DNA of 64,000 nucleotides. It comes from Escherichia phage UGJNEcP1. Below the pieces are notes generated by a model. That model worked only from the letters and a program-made list of their open reading frames with translations, searched no databases and was not told the origin of the DNA. Where the stretch lies: sequence record OV754623. The stretch is one strand, 5' to 3'. A program made the position numbers and the translations under genes. Below, one piece after another: positions 17,519-52,534 of the stretch (positions are counted from its first letter, which is position 1; each line of letters opens with the position of its first letter).

Positions 17519-17547
17519 ATAATACCATGTTTGAAGCAAAAGTAAAC
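17519..17547 (-). promoter_or_regulatory. early promoter for motA (GTTTAC, 17 nt, TATTAT)
   Basis: minus strand GTTTACTTTTGCTTCAAACATGGTATTAT, then GGAG SD and AUG. Confidence 0.55.
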
Positions 17548-17839: not shown

Positions 17840-17868
17840 ATAATATCATGTTTGAAGCAAAAGTAAAC
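17840..17868 (-). promoter_or_regulatory. early promoter, near-identical copy of the motA promoter
   Basis: minus strand GTTTACTTTTGCTTCAAACATGATATTAT; about 73 nt near-identical to 17470-17545. Confidence 0.55.
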
Positions 17869-20380: not shown

Positions 20381-20630
20381 TTTGTGTTCCTCATGTTTCA
20401 GTAGGACTACTATACCATAATCCTACCTTGTTGTAAACAATTAAATTACATTAAAATATGTTAAAGCCAACCATGTTCCTGTGAACGAACACGCAATGTA
20501 AAAACCCGTATCGCAAATTGTTCTTAGTACAATAAGAAGTGCATTTTTCATAAGTACCTCAATGCAATTGAAAATATTATACAAATCATAGGGATACTAA
20601 GCAACCATATTCCGATCCACATTTTAGAGC

Positions 20631-20920: not shown

Positions 20921-20950
20921 ACTATAACATAGTCCTACTTAGTTGTAAAC
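20921..20950 (-). promoter_or_regulatory. early promoter with a palindrome spanning the -10 element
   Basis: minus strand GTTTAC-AACTAAGTAGGACTATGTTATAGTAGTCCTA; inverted repeat taggacta/tagtccta around the -10. Confidence 0.45.
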
Positions 20951-38630: not shown

Positions 38631-38828
38631 ATGTTTAAACTTCCATCGTTAATCAACGCTATTAAAGGCAATAAAAAGAAAACTGCTATCGCTGCAATAG
38701 TTGTAGGTGGCATTATTTCATGGAACTTCGGGATTGCACCATTGTTAGTTGCCCATGGTATTATAGTTCCTTCTGTTCCATTGGATACTGTAGTTGATTT
38801 GGCCTTTGCTATTATAGGGCTTGTTTAA
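38631..38828 (+). CDS. hypothetical small membrane protein on the plus strand
   Basis: 65 aa, two hydrophobic segments; AAGGAG SD 7 nt upstream of AUG; opposite orientation to its neighbours. Confidence 0.35.
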   Translation: MFKLPSLINAIKGNKKKTAIAAIVVGGIISWNFGIAPLLVAHGIIVPSVPLDTVVDLAFAIIGLV

Positions 38829-39847
38829 ATCTTCGAATAACGAGATAATCTCATTTTAGCATGCAACCCACTTGAAATATTCTGTTTCATATATTCTAAA
38901 ATTTCTTGTGGTGTTGCATTTTCTTTCATTACCATATCATTCACATCCTTTGATCTCCACGGAGCTCGGTCCCAGAACATGACACGTTCGCCTGCATCAA
39001 CTAATCGCTTCATGCGAGCTATAGTATCCGGATGCCTAGGTTCATTATCCATTACCCATACCCGACGTTCTTTAAATGGTACCACATCTAAATCTATTGA
39101 GCCGCCTGTAATAGCGATTGCATTGGGTATGAATAAACTATCAATAGGGCCTTCCATTACCCAGACGTCTCCTTCCTTAACACGTTCAACACCATAAATT
39201 TTTGTTGCAGACTCAAACGCTTTAATAGTGATATATTTCTGAGGAGCATCTTTACGAAGTGCACGTCCTTGGAATGACTCGGCCTTACCATCTTTATTAA
39301 AAATAGGAATCACTAAACGTGGTTCGGGAATCTCTTTCTTGTACGTACCAGGTTGAATCTTGTTGACCAATTTAGGCCATTCTAATGTGAACCATAATCT
39401 GTTCCATGATTCTTTAGGAATACACCGAGACTTGACATATTTCACAATAGGATGCTCTTCAGGCAACTTGTCCAGACGAGAACAAGACGGCAAAGAATTT
39501 ATAGTCTTTTTCTCCGGTTCTGGTTTATGTTCAGGAACCTTTTCAATTTTTGGTTCCATTCTAGCTTTTTCTTTACGAACTTCCATTAGATATTCGCGAT
39601 AAAGCTCTTCATCATACTCTTTTAAGTATCCAGAAATTGTATTATGGTATTGACAGTTATAGCAATGTACATTACCAGGAGTACCGCCATAATACCATCC
39701 GCGAGCTTTCATTGCATCTGTCTGGGAGTCGCCACAAACTGGACAACGAAACGTTAATTTAAATGTGCTTGAATTATTGATTTGTCTAAAACGAGGGAGG
39801 TGAGAAAACGCACGATAAGCAAATTCATTATCTATCCATTCAGCCAT
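38825..39847 (-). CDS. 61: DNA primase gp61
   Basis: 340 aa (T4 gp61 342 aa); N-terminal zinc ribbon CPVCGDS...CYNC and TOPRIM-like region. Confidence 0.9.
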   Translation of the reverse strand: MAEWIDNEFAYRAFSHLPRFRQINNSSTFKLTFRCPVCGDSQTDAMKARGWYYGGTPGNVHCYNCQYHNTISGYLKEYDEELYREYLMEVRKEKARMEPKIEKVPEHKPEPEKKTINSLPSCSRLDKLPEEHPIVKYVKSRCIPKESWNRLWFTLEWPKLVNKIQPGTYKKEIPEPRLVIPIFNKDGKAESFQGRALRKDAPQKYITIKAFESATKIYGVERVKEGDVWVMEGPIDSLFIPNAIAITGGSIDLDVVPFKERRVWVMDNEPRHPDTIARMKRLVDAGERVMFWDRAPWRSKDVNDMVMKENATPQEILEYMKQNISSGLHAKMRLSRYSKI

Positions 39848-39886: not shown

Positions 39887-40381
39887 TCACAACTTATTAA
39901 TATTTACTTTAATTCGCTTTCTTTTCTTGGAAGGAATTTGTTCTGGACCTTTATTTACGACTGCACCTGAAGTAGTTCCTGATGCAATAGCTTGAGGACT
40001 GCCACCTGAATCACCAGCAACCATATCCTCAAATAAAGGGAGTTCTTTAAATATTTCTTTCTGTTGTTCTTCCGTAATGTTATAGCGTGAAGCTACAGCA
40101 CTCCAGGCAGACATCATTGAGGCCATTCCATTAAGACCTGGAACAGTGCTCATCATTCGCTTCATTGAACGAACTGAAGCATGAAAAGGTGTATAAGCCG
40201 CTTTCTCTTCAGGAGTGGAAGGGCGTTTAAGAACACTTCCACGTTCATCGATGATTTTGGCTTCATACGCTTTCCATTCGGTAAAAGGTTTTTGCATTAG
40301 TCGAATAAACTTATATGCGTAAACAGAATCTATTGCAGTGTTAATAATACCCATAGGTACCTCCTGAGTATATTTAATCAA
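39887..40381 (-). CDS. hypothetical protein (61.1 position)
   Basis: 164-aa ORF. Confidence 0.5.
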   Translation of the reverse strand: MIKYTQEVPMGIINTAIDSVYAYKFIRLMQKPFTEWKAYEAKIIDERGSVLKRPSTPEEKAAYTPFHASVRSMKRMMSTVPGLNGMASMMSAWSAVASRYNITEEQQKEIFKELPLFEDMVAGDSGGSPQAIASGTTSGAVVNKGPEQIPSKKRKRIKVNINKL

Positions 40382-40571
40382 TTACAAAGATTGCTTTGTC
40401 ACCATTTATATCTGTGACTTCATATGTAGTGCCTTCATACTGTGGAATATTCCAAATTACACCATCATTAGCTTTTACGCTAATATGGCATTGGTGTTTT
40501 GAAACAACTTCATAATCTTCAAAACTTGTAAAAACACTAATTTTAGAACCAGTGCAAATTGCAGTAGTCAT
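40374..40571 (-). CDS. hypothetical small protein
   Basis: 65-aa ORF with overlapping start/stop. Confidence 0.4.
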   Translation of the reverse strand: MTTAICTGSKISVFTSFEDYEVVSKHQCHISVKANDGVIWNIPQYEGTTYEVTDINGDKAIFVID

Positions 40572-40572
40572 T

Positions 40573-41232
40573 TTAACCTCGATTCATAAATGCATTAAAT
40601 ATTTGGTCATCAACAGAAATTTCTAATTCGACTTCAATTGCTTCAGCCTTTTCTTCAGGCGGTAATTCGTATCCACACACTACAATTTTTTCATCGATAT
40701 CAAAATATACAGAAGCAATATGATTAATGTTATTTTCAGTTAAGTCCAAATCAACATCAACATCTTTTTGACCTTCACTTAAAGGATAACTAATACGGGT
40801 TATTTTATTATCTTTAACAAAGAGTCCGCCAACATACTCTGTACTACGTTTGAAGTTTACACGTTTCCGAATTGAAAGATATGATGCATCTTTACCGTGA
40901 GCTCGGCTCATAGGACATAATGAATAGCTAGAATAAGAGATGTCAAATCCTACACCTTCAATATGAGCCAACGTATCATGATTAAACCAATTATAATCAT
41001 ATGCCAAATCCATTATATTGTAATATGTGAAAGGCACAGGATTAACATCATATGTTGTACCTTTAAAATCCGCCCATGCAACGATTTCGTTATCTTTAAC
41101 AATTACAAAAATTACACCAATATGGTATCCATTATTATTTTCATTCGGCGTTATATTATAACATTGTGCATTAGGAAATTTACCATATTTAAATGGCGCA
41201 TTTTTGTGCATATAATAAATCATATTATTCAC
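40573..41232 (-). CDS. hypothetical protein (61.2 position)
   Basis: 219-aa ORF. Confidence 0.5.
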   Translation of the reverse strand: MNNMIYYMHKNAPFKYGKFPNAQCYNITPNENNNGYHIGVIFVIVKDNEIVAWADFKGTTYDVNPVPFTYYNIMDLAYDYNWFNHDTLAHIEGVGFDISYSSYSLCPMSRAHGKDASYLSIRKRVNFKRSTEYVGGLFVKDNKITRISYPLSEGQKDVDVDLDLTENNINHIASVYFDIDEKIVVCGYELPPEEKAEAIEVELEISVDDQIFNAFMNRG

Positions 41233-41518
41233 CTGTGATTTCGGTTACGATATCTTTGTTATCGAAATTAGGGTCACAATACAAAACATAGTTGTACTGC
41301 ATGATACCGCCAGACTTAAGTTGTTCAACAACTTTATTAACCATATTAGGACGGTCTCGTTTAGTGATGTTCATGATATCAGAGAAGATTTGTTGTTCAA
41401 CATCTTCTTGATTTGCAGTCATTGACCACTCACAGAGGTCTTTATCATAACCTGCCGTAACTGGAGCCGGTGCACATGATACTGCAAGTAAGATTGCTGC
41501 CAATGATAACTTTTTCAT
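41225..41518 (-). CDS. sp: Spackle (Sp), periplasmic superinfection-exclusion protein
   Basis: 97 aa with signal peptide; GYDKDLCEWSMTA, IMNI.KRDRP, QLKSGG.MQYNYVLYCD match T4 Sp as recalled. Confidence 0.8.
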   Translation of the reverse strand: MKKLSLAAILLAVSCAPAPVTAGYDKDLCEWSMTANQEDVEQQIFSDIMNITKRDRPNMVNKVVEQLKSGGIMQYNYVLYCDPNFDNKDIVTEITGE

Positions 41519-41581
41519 TTTAACTCCTTAGTTGATTTGATAGGACTACTATACTATAGTCCATCTATAATGTAAACAAGT

Positions 41582-41830
41582 TTATTCTTTTTCGCGAATA
41601 ATAATTACTTGTTGAGGCTGCTGAGCAGATTTCTTTTCGGCAACGATAGACCAAATTAAAGTTCCAATCCAACCAACCATCGTCCAGTTAAAGAGTAAAG
41701 ATACAAAGAAGATTGCTGCTGTGCTTTTTGTGCCACGAATAAGTGCGATTACCCAAGGCAACATGTAAATGATGATTGAACCAATACCTGCGATTAAAAC
41801 TGCTACTGAACTAGCCACGAATAATTCCAT
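41582..41830 (-). CDS. small inner-membrane protein (two TM segments), immunity-like candidate
   Basis: 82 aa, two hydrophobic helices; adjacent to sp; function unverified. Confidence 0.45.
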   Translation of the reverse strand: MELFVASSVAVLIAGIGSIIIYMLPWVIALIRGTKSTAAIFFVSLLFNWTMVGWIGTLIWSIVAEKKSAQQPQQVIIIREKE

Positions 41831-41891
41831 GATAATTTCCTCTTGATTTGTTATGTTTATAGTATCTTATTTTAACTTTGGTGTAAACCAA

Positions 41892-42260
41892 TTAATTAAA
41901 TTTGTTTAAACGTTCAATACACTGGACGTAGTTATTCGCGATTTGTTTCTGGGTAGGCTCTTTACCAGTTGTTTCAACATAGCGAATGAATGCGATTTCA
42001 GTAGCCTGTAAGCAATGTTCTTTAACGCGTTGTTCCTTTGACAATGCTACAGTATCAGAGTCACGATAACGTTGAGCATGAGCGTCAGCTTGAATCATTC
42101 GATTACCTACAGTAACCGGGTCTTCCACTTCAACTTTAGGTTGTTCATATTGTTTAACATTCGGATTGTAAATCAGTTGGCCAACGTTATTAGGGATAAA
42201 GCCATGAGCACCACATCCGGTTAATCCGAATACCATTGCTAAAGCGATTAATTTTTTCAT
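41892..42260 (-). CDS. putative lipoprotein
   Basis: 122 aa; signal peptide with lipobox LTGC. Confidence 0.55.
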   Translation of the reverse strand: MKKLIALAMVFGLTGCGAHGFIPNNVGQLIYNPNVKQYEQPKVEVEDPVTVGNRMIQADAHAQRYRDSDTVALSKEQRVKEHCLQATEIAFIRYVETTGKEPTQKQIANNYVQCIERLNKFN

Positions 42261-42320
42261 TTCAATTTCCTCTGTAGTTGATAGAAAGATAGTAACACAG
42301 TATGTGGTGCTTGTAAACAG

Positions 42321-42578
42321 CTATTTTAAACTTTTGCGAAATTTGCGTTTTTCTTGACGAATCTGTCGTTTAGTCGGACGTACAGCAAATTTAACGAAGT
42401 CCACTTTGCCGTGTGGAAACTTTTCAGATGCTTCACAATCCATCATTAGTTCCCATCCTTCCAAAATAAGAGCTTTCCATTGGGTAGTTGATGCAAATTC
42501 GTATGTTGATGGTTTAAACACAGTTGAATACATATTAACCTCTGAAGTCTGCTTCAAAAACTTTCTCATCATTAACAA
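42321..42578 (-). CDS. hypothetical small basic protein
   Basis: 85-aa ORF. Confidence 0.4.
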   Translation of the reverse strand: MLMMRKFLKQTSEVNMYSTVFKPSTYEFASTTQWKALILEGWELMMDCEASEKFPHGKVDFVKFAVRPTKRQIRQEKRKFRKSLK

Positions 42579-42726
42579 ATGCTTTAACTAATGCATTGTT
42601 CACTTCAGCAAGTTGTACCGCAACCCACTCGATTTCTTCGCGATCACCTGATAACATGATATCTTTAGTGAACATCTCACCGCTTTTAAACCAACCGATA
42701 AAAGTAACTTTAGTTAATTTGCTCAT
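42535..42726 (-). CDS. dmd: Dmd antitoxin (inhibitor of RnlA/LsoA-type toxins)
   Basis: ORF 42535..42747; start at internal MSKLTKV gives about 63 aa; V.F.GWFK...MFTK.I and AEVN.ALVKAF..D.KV.E.D.RG match T4 Dmd as recalled. Confidence 0.75.
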   Translation of the reverse strand: MSKLTKVTFIGWFKSGEMFTKDIMLSGDREEIEWVAVQLAEVNNALVKAFVNDEKVFEADFRG

Positions 42727-43040
42727 ATTTCCTCGCAAAATGCCCATTCAGCGTGATAAACTGTAGCGCCTTTAGTATCATTCATTTGAACTACATCTAC
42801 CGGAGAAATTACTCGATAGAGACGTGGTTCACCTCCATAAGAGCGTGCTGCTCGTCCTGCATAAATCTTTGCTAAACCGATATCTTCGGTAAAGAATACA
42901 CGATCCAAGTTTTTCTTACGTCCTGTTTCAGACAGAACTCCTGTTTCTTCAGGAGGACAAAGCATGTTTTCGATGTTAGCTGAACTACTTGAACCGTGAT
43001 AAAAAATCTTAAATTCTGCTTTACAATCGATGGTTTTCAT
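42723..43040 (-). CDS. hypothetical protein
   Basis: 105-aa ORF. Confidence 0.45.
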   Translation of the reverse strand: MKTIDCKAEFKIFYHGSSSSANIENMLCPPEETGVLSETGRKKNLDRVFFTEDIGLAKIYAGRAARSYGGEPRLYRVISPVDVVQMNDTKGATVYHAEWAFCEEI

Positions 43041-43095
43041 TTTGTTCTCCAGTAGTTGATAGGTCTATAATAACACAACTACTGGAGAAGTAAAC

Positions 43096-43470
43096 TTAAA
43101 AACGTAATTTAGATATATCTGCGTTGATTTCGTTTTGGTTTGCGTCGTATGCAATTAAACGAACCGCTTTAGATGGGTCATTCAATGCATAGAAATGATG
43201 GAACATTGCTCGAACGATATCACCATTTACGAGTTCTACCTGGATAGGAGAACCTTTTTCGAGTTGGAAATGTTCATAAGCTTTGATGGTTCGTAGATAA
43301 TCAAGTTTTTGATTTCCAGCTCCAACTATTTGTACGATACGTTTGCCCATGTTTTCCATACGAGATACAATAGTTTTAGGAGCAAGAATAACGTAGGTTG
43401 CCAGCGGAGAAACTACTTCAACAGTTGTGTTTTCGGTGATTGCAGTAAAAATTGCTTGAGACATATTCAT
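43096..43470 (-). CDS. hypothetical protein
   Basis: 124-aa ORF downstream of gene 41 with a promoter-like sequence upstream. Confidence 0.5.
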   Translation of the reverse strand: MNMSQAIFTAITENTTVEVVSPLATYVILAPKTIVSRMENMGKRIVQIVGAGNQKLDYLRTIKAYEHFQLEKGSPIQVELVNGDIVRAMFHHFYALNDPSKAVRLIAYDANQNEINADISKLRF

Positions 43471-43535
43471 AATGTTTTCCTCTTGGTTTGTGTAAGTGCA
43501 TCATATCATGCCTAGAGGAAGATGTAAACCCCGAA

Positions 43536-43553
43536 AGGAGACCGAAGTCTCCT
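43536..43553 (-). terminator. tetraloop hairpin after gene 41
   Basis: AGGAGAC-loop-GUCUCCU; U-tract on the plus side, GTTTAC promoter element follows on the minus side. Confidence 0.4.
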
Positions 43554-43558
43554 TTTTA

Positions 43559-45001
43559 TTAAAATTTTAACTCATTGGCTAAGCTATCTAGGTCAGCACG
43601 TGTTGCTTTGGCTTTACCTACGCGTTCCGTACGATTCACCTCTGCCTGACGCATCTGAGCACCTGCGTTTTCATTTACTGTGTTAGGTGTGTTCATGCCT
43701 TCTTGCTCAATCTCAATCCATTTCTGGTTGCCTTTACGTACACCCATCAGGAATTTATTCCACTTATTCTTATCACCATAACGTGATTTGATTTGTTTGA
43801 TAAGTTGTTGTTCGGCTTGTGCAAGTTCTTCGGTTTCAATTACAGCCAACATGAAATCTGCCGTTGCTGGTAAACCTGCTGATTCTGCGATATCACTCAT
43901 GTTCATGTCTGAAGCATCCCATGCTGCACGTCCTACTTGAGCTGCAGTCCATAGAACTGTTTCAGATTCTACTGCTAATGCACGAAGTTCTTCTGCGATA
44001 GCTTTAACTAATGTGTAGCTATTTTCAGTGTAAACTCTGATACGACAAGACCCACAAATACCTAAGTAATCAACCATGATTACAGATGGCACAAAGTTCT
44101 TCTTAAGTTTTAACTCATTAAGCAATGCACGGAATGTATTAGCATTAGCTCCACCAGTAGGATACTGTTTAACTACTAAACGTCCTAATGTGGATTTTGA
44201 ACGCCATTTTTCCATCTTGGCTTTATATTCAGCATAAGATACGTTACCATCATCGATATCATCGAGTGATACGTCAAGCATGTTTGCATCTATACGCTTA
44301 GCACAAACTTCTTCAGCCATTTCCATGGAAATATAAAGAACATTATGTCCTGTTTGAAGATAATCTGCAGCAAGTGAACAAAGGCCTAAAGATTTACCAA
44401 CGTTAACACCTGCCATTAAAACGTTTAGTGTACCAGTTTCAGCACCGCCTTTGGTGATTTTATTCAAAATGTTTAATTTGAACGGGACCTTACGTGCTTT
44501 GTTCAGATAAGAAAGCCAGCGTGCTTCGTAGTCTTCCATCCAGTCATGTCCAACATAACTATCGAACGAAATTGAAAGTGCTTGACGCATAATATCAGGA
44601 ATAGCTCCTACATCAGGCATTTTCTTGTTACGTTGTTCTGGAGGTAGTTCAGCATTAGACTGAATCTCAATGATTTTGGACGTAGCATTATACATCGCTT
44701 TTTGCTGGACATATTTCTCAGTTTCTTTAACCAACCATTCGTGGTCTTCAGGAGTATCAGCCAATTTTTCAATTAGGTCTGAAGTTCCTTTATATTCGGC
44801 TTCAGTTAAAGAACTGTTATCTAAAGCCACCTTTAATGCATTGATAGATGGCATTGCATTATATTCGTTAACGTGGCTCTTTATAATTTTAAAGACATTT
44901 TTTGCCGGTCCACGCTCAAAGTAATCAGAATCCATATAAGGCCAGACCTTAGAAAAATAAGCCTGGTCATATACTAGATGAGACAAAATAATTTCTACCA
45001 C
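43559..45001 (-). CDS. 41: replicative DNA helicase gp41 (DnaB-like)
   Basis: 480 aa (T4 gp41 475 aa); Walker A GVNVGKS and DnaB-family C-terminal domain. Confidence 0.95.
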   Translation of the reverse strand: MVEIILSHLVYDQAYFSKVWPYMDSDYFERGPAKNVFKIIKSHVNEYNAMPSINALKVALDNSSLTEAEYKGTSDLIEKLADTPEDHEWLVKETEKYVQQKAMYNATSKIIEIQSNAELPPEQRNKKMPDVGAIPDIMRQALSISFDSYVGHDWMEDYEARWLSYLNKARKVPFKLNILNKITKGGAETGTLNVLMAGVNVGKSLGLCSLAADYLQTGHNVLYISMEMAEEVCAKRIDANMLDVSLDDIDDGNVSYAEYKAKMEKWRSKSTLGRLVVKQYPTGGANANTFRALLNELKLKKNFVPSVIMVDYLGICGSCRIRVYTENSYTLVKAIAEELRALAVESETVLWTAAQVGRAAWDASDMNMSDIAESAGLPATADFMLAVIETEELAQAEQQLIKQIKSRYGDKNKWNKFLMGVRKGNQKWIEIEQEGMNTPNTVNENAGAQMRQAEVNRTERVGKAKATRADLDSLANELKF

Positions 45002-52390: not shown

Positions 52391-52534
52391 CTAGTTAAAG
52401 CATTCATACTTTGCTTGTAGTCCAATCATAATCCATCCGATTATAAGAGTCGGAATCATTACCGGAGCCGTTAAGCTCCAGTAGATAGTCATGACAAGCA
52501 TCAATAGTAAAAGTCCTATTGTTATTGCTTTCAT
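52391..52534 (-). CDS. small hydrophobic peptide
   Basis: 47-aa ORF MKAITIGLLLLMLVMTIYWSL...; ATGA overlap with the SIS gene stop; below track cutoff. Confidence 0.3.
   Translation of the reverse strand: MKAITIGLLLLMLVMTIYWSLTAPVMIPTLIIGWIMIGLQAKYECFN

Follow-up and report, generated by a model that had tools for sequence, protein, structure and literature searches.

A 64,000-nucleotide (nt) stretch of Escherichia phage UGJNEcP1 (sequence record OV754623), referred to here as the window, contains an array of small genes concerned with superinfection exclusion and with counter-defence. The array is flanked by the genes for the replicative helicase (gene 41, positions 43559-45001) and the primase (gene 61, 38825-39847). 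All genes of the region lie on the minus strand and, in the direction of transcription, their order is ORF041c, ORF040c–dmd–tifA, imm.1, imm, and sp–adfA (ORF, open reading frame). The window belongs to a Mosigvirus; over about 3.1 kb around the array it matches Escherichia phage UGJNEcP2 at 100% identity and phage RB69 at 98.3%. The RB69 record (NC_004928, RB69p035-p039) annotates sp, imm, imm.1, 61.4 and dmd in the same order and with the same spacing, each protein differs from its RB69 counterpart by 0-2 residues, and there is essentially no difference inside the interval. A search for non-coding RNA and tRNA genes within 40300-43700 found none.

A first-pass annotation had singled out positions 41225-42747 as a compact superinfection-exclusion and anti-defence cluster composed of sp, a gene for a two-helix membrane protein, a gene for a lipoprotein, and dmd. 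The outline holds and is already in the literature (PMC9391042). The four ORFs are real genes on the minus strand, each with a family match far beyond chance. However, the gene list was incomplete: tifA (61.4), which lies inside the interval, was missed, and adfA, directly downstream, was not noted. Each of the five genes sp, imm, imm.1, tifA and dmd has a Pfam match above the curated cut-off, and nothing was found that contradicts these identities. The interval is very probably the form that the non-essential early-gene block between genes 41 and 61 takes in RB69-type phages (Mosigvirus). One point weighs against this reading: the functions assigned to the genes of this phage are carried over from their T4 and RB69 orthologues. 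Every gene of the interval is a known member of a known family and has carried its annotation in RB69 for two decades. Experimentally established functions exist for four of the six genes; Sp, Dmd, TifA and AdfA have each been characterized by experiment.

The two genes that had been reported as lacking a T4 counterpart are imm and imm.1. The first, imm (41582-41830, minus strand), encodes an 82-amino-acid (aa) putative inner-membrane protein that matches PF14373 (Imm_superinfect; expect value (E) 4e-15, 55.8 bits, cut-off 27.9) and phrog_1039 (E 2e-30). It aligns with T4 Imm along its whole extent (82 of 83 aa) at 64% identity (E 4e-37). Its two hydrophobic segments, at about residues 3-31 and 38-63 within hydrophobic windows at 1-34 and 38-64, correspond to two predicted transmembrane helices, a feature in common with T4 Imm, and are separated by a short basic loop, R-G-T-K-S, at residues 31-35. 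The second, imm.1 (41892-42260, minus strand), encodes a predicted lipoprotein of 122 aa that matches PF17578/DUF5481 (38.2 bits, cut-off 27) and phrog_1754 (E 6e-29) and is 33% identical to T4 Imm.1 (E 3e-19). By sequence, the two proteins are the orthologues of T4 Imm and T4 Imm.1.

The alternative, that the membrane protein and the lipoprotein are novel envelope genes without T4 counterparts and form a new exclusion module beside sp, draws on the fact that imm and imm.1 are not next to sp in T4 and so would not come to mind from the T4 61.x region. Indeed, the two genes were presumably overlooked in the first-pass annotation because in T4 both lie far from sp. Given the identity to the T4 proteins, the two Pfam matches above cut-off, and the RB69 GenBank record, which already labels the 82-aa protein imm and the lipoprotein gene imm.1, there is practically no chance that this alternative is correct. 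The comparison with the T4 61.x, sp and imm genes that the annotation itself had proposed thus disposes of both supposed orphans; they are plain homologues of T4 imm and imm.1, and the cluster is an ordinary, already known one. As a discovery it matters little, since all of its genes are annotated in RB69 and the region has already been named an anti-toxin–antitoxin (anti-TA) island. The one modestly new point concerns imm.1: its constant adjacency to imm and the near-constant lipobox of its product.

Imm.1 begins MKKLIALAMVFGLTG-C16. Under a lipobox test that called for a basic N-region, a hydrophobic region and the motif [LVI][ASTVI][GAS]C within the first ~25 residues, a hydrophobicity and motif script identifies an initial MKK, a hydrophobic stretch, the lipobox L-T-G-C, and Gly at position +2 after the Cys predicted to be lipid-modified. 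T4 Imm.1 also has an N-terminal lipobox (LGLAGC), and the lipobox Cys is present in 27 of the 28 members of the family examined. In homologues, residue +2 is V, S, A or Q; it is never Asp, and because of this Imm.1 is probably sorted to the outer membrane. Two further cysteines are conserved, Cys83 and Cys114 in this protein, and their conservation suggests a periplasmic disulfide. Imm.1 is the fastest-diverging protein of the block, given that the T4 and window versions of its neighbors are 55-85% identical. A word-index search with Imm.1 returned 3 proteins and an exhaustive HMMER search 8 cluster representatives. These few matches indicate a family that is either small or fast-evolving; consequently, synteny was surveyed through Imm. 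Among the papers searched, none describes a function for Imm.1, DUF5481 or RB69ORF040c; one lists Imm.1 as a marker of the T4 group (PMC5885020). One 198-aa metagenome protein (P0003, from ENA) consists of a fragment of DNA polymerase A fused to the last 28 residues of exactly this Imm.1 sequence; it is most likely an assembly chimera.

The spackle gene, sp (gp61.3; 41225-41518, minus strand), encodes a 97-aa protein that covers positions 1-96 of the 96 in PF25676 (E 1e-42, 145 bits, cut-off 27) and belongs to phrog_1586 ('spackle periplasmic'). It is 66% identical to T4 Sp, differs by one residue from RB69 Sp, and matches the solved Spackle structures PDB 6x6o and 7cn6. Thus, the identification of Sp in the first-pass annotation is borne out, as are, by the hydrophobicity and motif script, its predictions of the Sp signal peptide, the two transmembrane helices of Imm and the lipobox of Imm.1. 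The signal peptide comprises residues 1-22 (MKK, a hydrophobic stretch, and VTA|GYDKDLCEW), and both the peptide and its cleavage context are shared with T4 Sp (AMA|GYDKDLCEW), from which N-terminal sequencing has shown that 22 residues are removed (PMC7650644). Cys29 and Cys81 are conserved in the mature protein. T4 Spackle acts on the tail protein gp5, whose lysozyme domain it binds and inhibits (PMC7677548, PMC7650644). By analogy with T4, for which these steps have been shown, Sp of this phage would be exported, lose its signal peptide, and inhibit the gp5 tail lysozyme of later-arriving phages. Within the signal peptide there is a lipobox-like sequence, A-V-S-C15 (residues 12-15, 41474-41485; L-A-S-C in T4). 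The possibility that Sp is itself a lipoprotein was rejected on account of the cleavage of T4 Sp after residue 22 (PMC7650644), and the motif is probably incidental; a minor lipid-modified form is conceivable.

Upstream of imm.1 lie two of the genes that counter host toxin–antitoxin (TA) systems. The antitoxin gene dmd (42535-42726, minus strand) encodes 63 aa, 55% identical to T4 Dmd, and matches PF17587 (E 2e-20, 73.1 bits, cut-off 27) as well as PDB 5i8j (E 9e-37) and 5hy3_B, the Dmd chain in a complex (E 4e-17). The gene had been recognized correctly, but its start had been placed at 42747. The true start is the ATG at 42726, which has a GAGGA ribosome-binding site, an ATGA overlap with the stop codon of the upstream ORF, and an alignment with the 60-aa T4 Dmd; the ATG at 42747 has none of these. 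T4 Dmd neutralizes the toxins RnlA and LsoA (PMC5308261), and the Dmd of this phage would be expected to do the same. The gene that follows, tifA (61.4; 42321-42533, minus strand), encodes a basic protein of 70 aa with a match to PF23945/DUF7279 (E 3.5e-20, 72.1 bits, cut-off 24.5). It has a basic central or C-terminal cluster, lies 1 nt after dmd, and is 57% identical to T4 gp61.4 and 100% identical to RB69 TifA. Gene 61.4 has been renamed tifA; RB69 TifA was tested directly and found to inhibit the type III toxin ToxN, more potently than the T4 protein (PMC9391042); since the tested protein is identical to that of this phage, TifA here should neutralize ToxN.

On the far side of sp, 13 nt downstream, lies adfA (anti-DarT factor A, 61.2; 40573-41211, minus strand; PF23813, E 1e-119). 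Its product differs from RB69 AdfA by three residues, among them R164H: residue 164 is His here and Arg in RB69. RB69 AdfA with Arg164 does not neutralize DarT1, and R164H is an evolved or natural neutralizing allele (PMC11257639). The AdfA of this phage would therefore be expected to neutralize DarT1, and because it carries His164 the phage is predicted to resist DarTG1, unlike RB69. For T4-like phages, dmd, tifA and adfA have been proposed to constitute an "anti-TA island" (Srikant et al. 2022, PMC9391042). The island is attributed to LeRoux et al. 2022 as well. Both in the published island and in the window, a gap of 1 nt links tifA translationally to dmd, the two share one early promoter, and adfA lies close by. 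In the lineage of the window the island differs in that it is interrupted by imm.1–imm–sp and is extended upstream by ORF040c and ORF041c, both of which are absent from T4.

The whole window was searched for the T4 early-promoter pattern GTTTACW-N16/17-TAYNRT. There are 13 matches, all on the minus strand, compared to 0.22 expected by chance. The segment 41548-43529 holds five of them, one per intergenic gap, which precede ORF041c, ORF040c, imm.1, imm and sp, respectively. The early-type promoters upstream of sp (41548-41577), imm (41859-41888) and imm.1 (42289-42318), all on the minus strand, have GTTTACA and a 17-nt spacer followed by TATAGT at sp and TACTAT at both imm and imm.1; that upstream of ORF040c–dmd–tifA (43067-43095, minus strand) has GTTTACT, a 16-nt spacer and TATTAT. 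The promoter-bearing gaps are of regular length (55-63 nt), and a ribosome-binding site precedes every gene. Within ORF040c–dmd–tifA the junctions are -4 and +1 nt, a layout that identifies these three genes as a single predicted transcription unit. At the level of the consensus, the five T4 early-type promoters would drive the units of the block. Elsewhere in the window, the matches at 17519-17547 and 17840-17868 are near-identical copies, and those at 20409-20438 and 20921-20950 form another such pair.

T4 Imm blocks entry of the DNA of a superinfecting phage, as concluded from genetic evidence (PMC6832632). By analogy, Imm of this phage, located in the inner membrane, would stop incoming DNA from reaching the cytoplasm. 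How Imm does this is a 50-year-old question, and the gene that accompanies imm is thus of interest. In the window, imm.1 and imm are on the same strand, separated by a gap of 61 nt. For a survey of their linkage, a hidden Markov model of the Imm.1 family was built from nine sequences and 80 Imm-family loci were taken from IMG/VR, 22 of them T4-like and 58 not. At all 22 T4-like loci a member of the Imm.1 family, with its lipobox Cys, directly adjoins imm on the same strand; at the non-T4-like loci an adjacent lipobox ORF of any kind is present in only 2 of 58. The same adjacency is seen in all five reference phages inspected (T4, STML-198, VR20, dhabil and Merci). The neighbors in T4, STML-198, VR20 and dhabil are confirmed members of phrog_1754, which includes the imm-flanking gene of STML-198 (upstream, E 2e-45), VR20 (downstream, E 3e-47) and dhabil (downstream, E 2e-52), while Merci gp211, upstream of imm, is recognized by the same lipobox and a shared motif. 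In addition, metagenomes provide three independent homologues, each 7-14 nt upstream of a PF14373 gene; one of the three follows a Frd3-family gene, which is a third genomic context. Taken together, the 22 IMG/VR loci, five reference phages and three metagenome contigs provide 28 distinct Imm.1-family genes, and in all 28 the gene is directly beside imm. The phage collection agrees with this: Imm.1 is detectable in 656 records, about the number (655) that have an Imm at least 60% identical to the query. Thus, imm.1–imm behaves like a two-gene cassette that can change its place and its gene order without losing the adjacency.

Because the two genes always travel together, Imm.1 can tentatively be proposed as the lipoprotein partner of Imm. 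In a fuller form of this proposal, which we put forward with the same reserve, Imm.1 would be a hitherto unrecognized lipoprotein component of T4-type superinfection immunity: anchored in the outer membrane and facing the periplasm, it might cooperate physically or functionally with inner-membrane Imm to misdirect the DNA or the tail tip of a secondary phage, and imm.1–imm would be a mobile two-gene cassette across the Tevenvirinae. Several observations weigh against such a partnership. The Imm family is widespread without Imm.1, in 1213 phage records versus 656 and at the 58 non-T4-like loci; since Imm is common in phages that have no Imm.1, it does not generally depend on it. Cloned T4 imm alone reportedly confers exclusion, a result attributed to Lu and Henning in 1989. 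One homologue, P0002, has no lipobox Cys. Profile searches of the PDB with Imm and with Imm.1 gave nothing credible, which counsels caution. Finally, the AlphaFold2 (AF2) model of Imm.1 is poor (predicted local distance difference test score (pLDDT) 63), with confidence only in a C-terminal helical hairpin at residues 75-120, and so lends no structural support.

A competing explanation is that Imm.1 acts independently of Imm, either binding an outer-membrane receptor or another envelope target from the periplasm or aiding resistance to lysis from without, and that the two genes are adjacent simply as early, envelope-directed accessory genes inherited as one block. The precedent is Llp of phage T5, a lipoprotein blocker of the FhuA receptor (PMC9586334). 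Like Imm.1, Llp is small, early and phage-encoded, and Imm.1 has conserved cysteines, but the two are likened by function only. In its small size, its two conserved Cys and its lack of Asp at +2, Imm.1 is as expected of an outer-membrane lipoprotein, the rapid divergence of Imm.1 relative to its neighbors fits an arms-race interface, and Imm homologues work in many phages without Imm.1. However, the adjacency is kept in every case, across at least three genomic contexts and in both gene orders, and hitch-hiking does not readily explain this in genomes so mosaic. Furthermore, T4-type exclusion acts after adsorption rather than at the receptor: secondary phages can still adsorb to cells already infected by T4, and lysis inhibition requires this adsorption (PMC6832632), which speaks against a receptor blocker. 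Independent action of Imm.1 is consequently rather unlikely. With respect to the partnership of Imm.1 and Imm, the unbroken association of the lipoprotein gene with imm makes its product a concrete, testable candidate partner for Imm.

The position of imm.1–imm is the only real difference from T4. In T4 the genes run 43 > imm.1 > imm > 42, at a distance of about 6 kb from sp, whereas in the window imm.1–imm lies between tifA and sp, so that the exclusion genes are contiguous. The T4 location is the common one: imm directly follows gene 43 in T4, in Gaprivervirus VR20, Dhakavirus dhabil, Gelderlandvirus STML-198 and Jiaodavirus Merci, and on two metagenome contigs as well. At T4-like and VR20-like IMG/VR loci, sp is 5.3-5.9 kb beyond imm; it adjoins imm at only 2 of the 22 T4-like loci, both of them RB69-like. 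In RB69 the interval between genes 43 and 42 contains sugar-metabolism genes and a small ORF annotated as 'similar to T4 42-imm intercistronic region', and the T4 42–imm spacer matches positions 52401-52513 of the window (72% over 115 nt, E 2e-10). The arrangement is most economically explained by a move of imm.1–imm, in the Mosigvirus lineage, from an ancestral site between genes 43 and 42 to its present place between tifA and sp. That the movement was out of the 43–42 site rests on the majority arrangement in other genera and this single 115-nt trace, which tempers the reading. The segment at 52401-52513 is a non-coding spacer that has been retained at the ancestral site though imm moved away, and its conservation hints at a regulatory element.

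The new location may have been selected, as an exclusion operon that allows co-regulation or joint transfer, or it may be a by-product of the remodeling of the 43–42 interval. The three envelope genes are contiguous, with regular spacers of 60-63 nt and an early promoter for each, and the sp–imm arrangement is fixed across ~154 Mosigvirus genomes; these points speak for selection. Against this, each gene has kept its own promoter, so co-transcription is not required; the confinement of sp–imm adjacency to one genus, and its absence elsewhere, favor an accident; and the sugar-metabolism genes and leftover spacer at the RB69 43–42 site are equally compatible with incidental displacement. On balance, a selected arrangement appears rather unlikely.

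ORF040c (42723-43040, minus strand), the first gene of the ORF040c–dmd–tifA unit, overlaps the last 25 nt of the interval delimited in the first-pass annotation. Its 105-aa product has an ADP-ribosyltransferase fold. The AF2 model is confident (pLDDT 88), and among 135 homologues there are two whose GenBank records already carry the label "ADP-ribosyl transferase." Sequence searches of Pfam, NCBIfam and the PDB gave no match, placing the protein in no curated family, and Foldseek returned nothing below E = 1. In an aligned subset of 37 homologues, 60-88% identical to the window protein and including proteins of T4-like phages of Enterobacter, Pantoea, Proteus, Serratia, Pectobacterium, Erwinia and Acinetobacter, residues H14-G15, Y59 and E102 never vary, and at least 90% of the sequences have S16. 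Compared to the small ADP-ribosyltransferase-fold enzymes AcrIF11, Arr and Tpt1, the 105 aa of ORF040c span only the lobe that binds nicotinamide adenine dinucleotide (NAD).

A constant coupling of ORF040c to dmd was considered and rejected: an Acinetobacter phage has its copy between genes 41 and 61, and no Dmd family match is recorded among the neighbors of that copy. Two metagenome contigs that contain the ORF040c protein of Proteus phage Pm5461 have a different gene context. The linkage to dmd is thus not conserved in more distant phages. In the RB69-like block, which is extended by this highly conserved gene, the predicted co-transcription with dmd and tifA and the modeled fold make a further counter-defence enzyme plausible, and ORF040c a reasonable candidate for one. 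The next gene upstream, ORF041c (43096-43470, minus strand), has its own early-type promoter and encodes 124 aa that belong to phrog_10668 and are 100% identical to the RB69 protein. Searches of Pfam and NCBIfam with it gave no match, and it is another candidate within the 'anti-TA island'.

Toward gene 61, positions 39887-40381 (minus strand) contain a single 164-aa ORF with a full-length match to phrog_2086, whereas the RB69 record has two ORFs there, gp61.1 and ORF032c. The split in RB69 reflects either a frameshift in that phage or an annotation that divides one gene.

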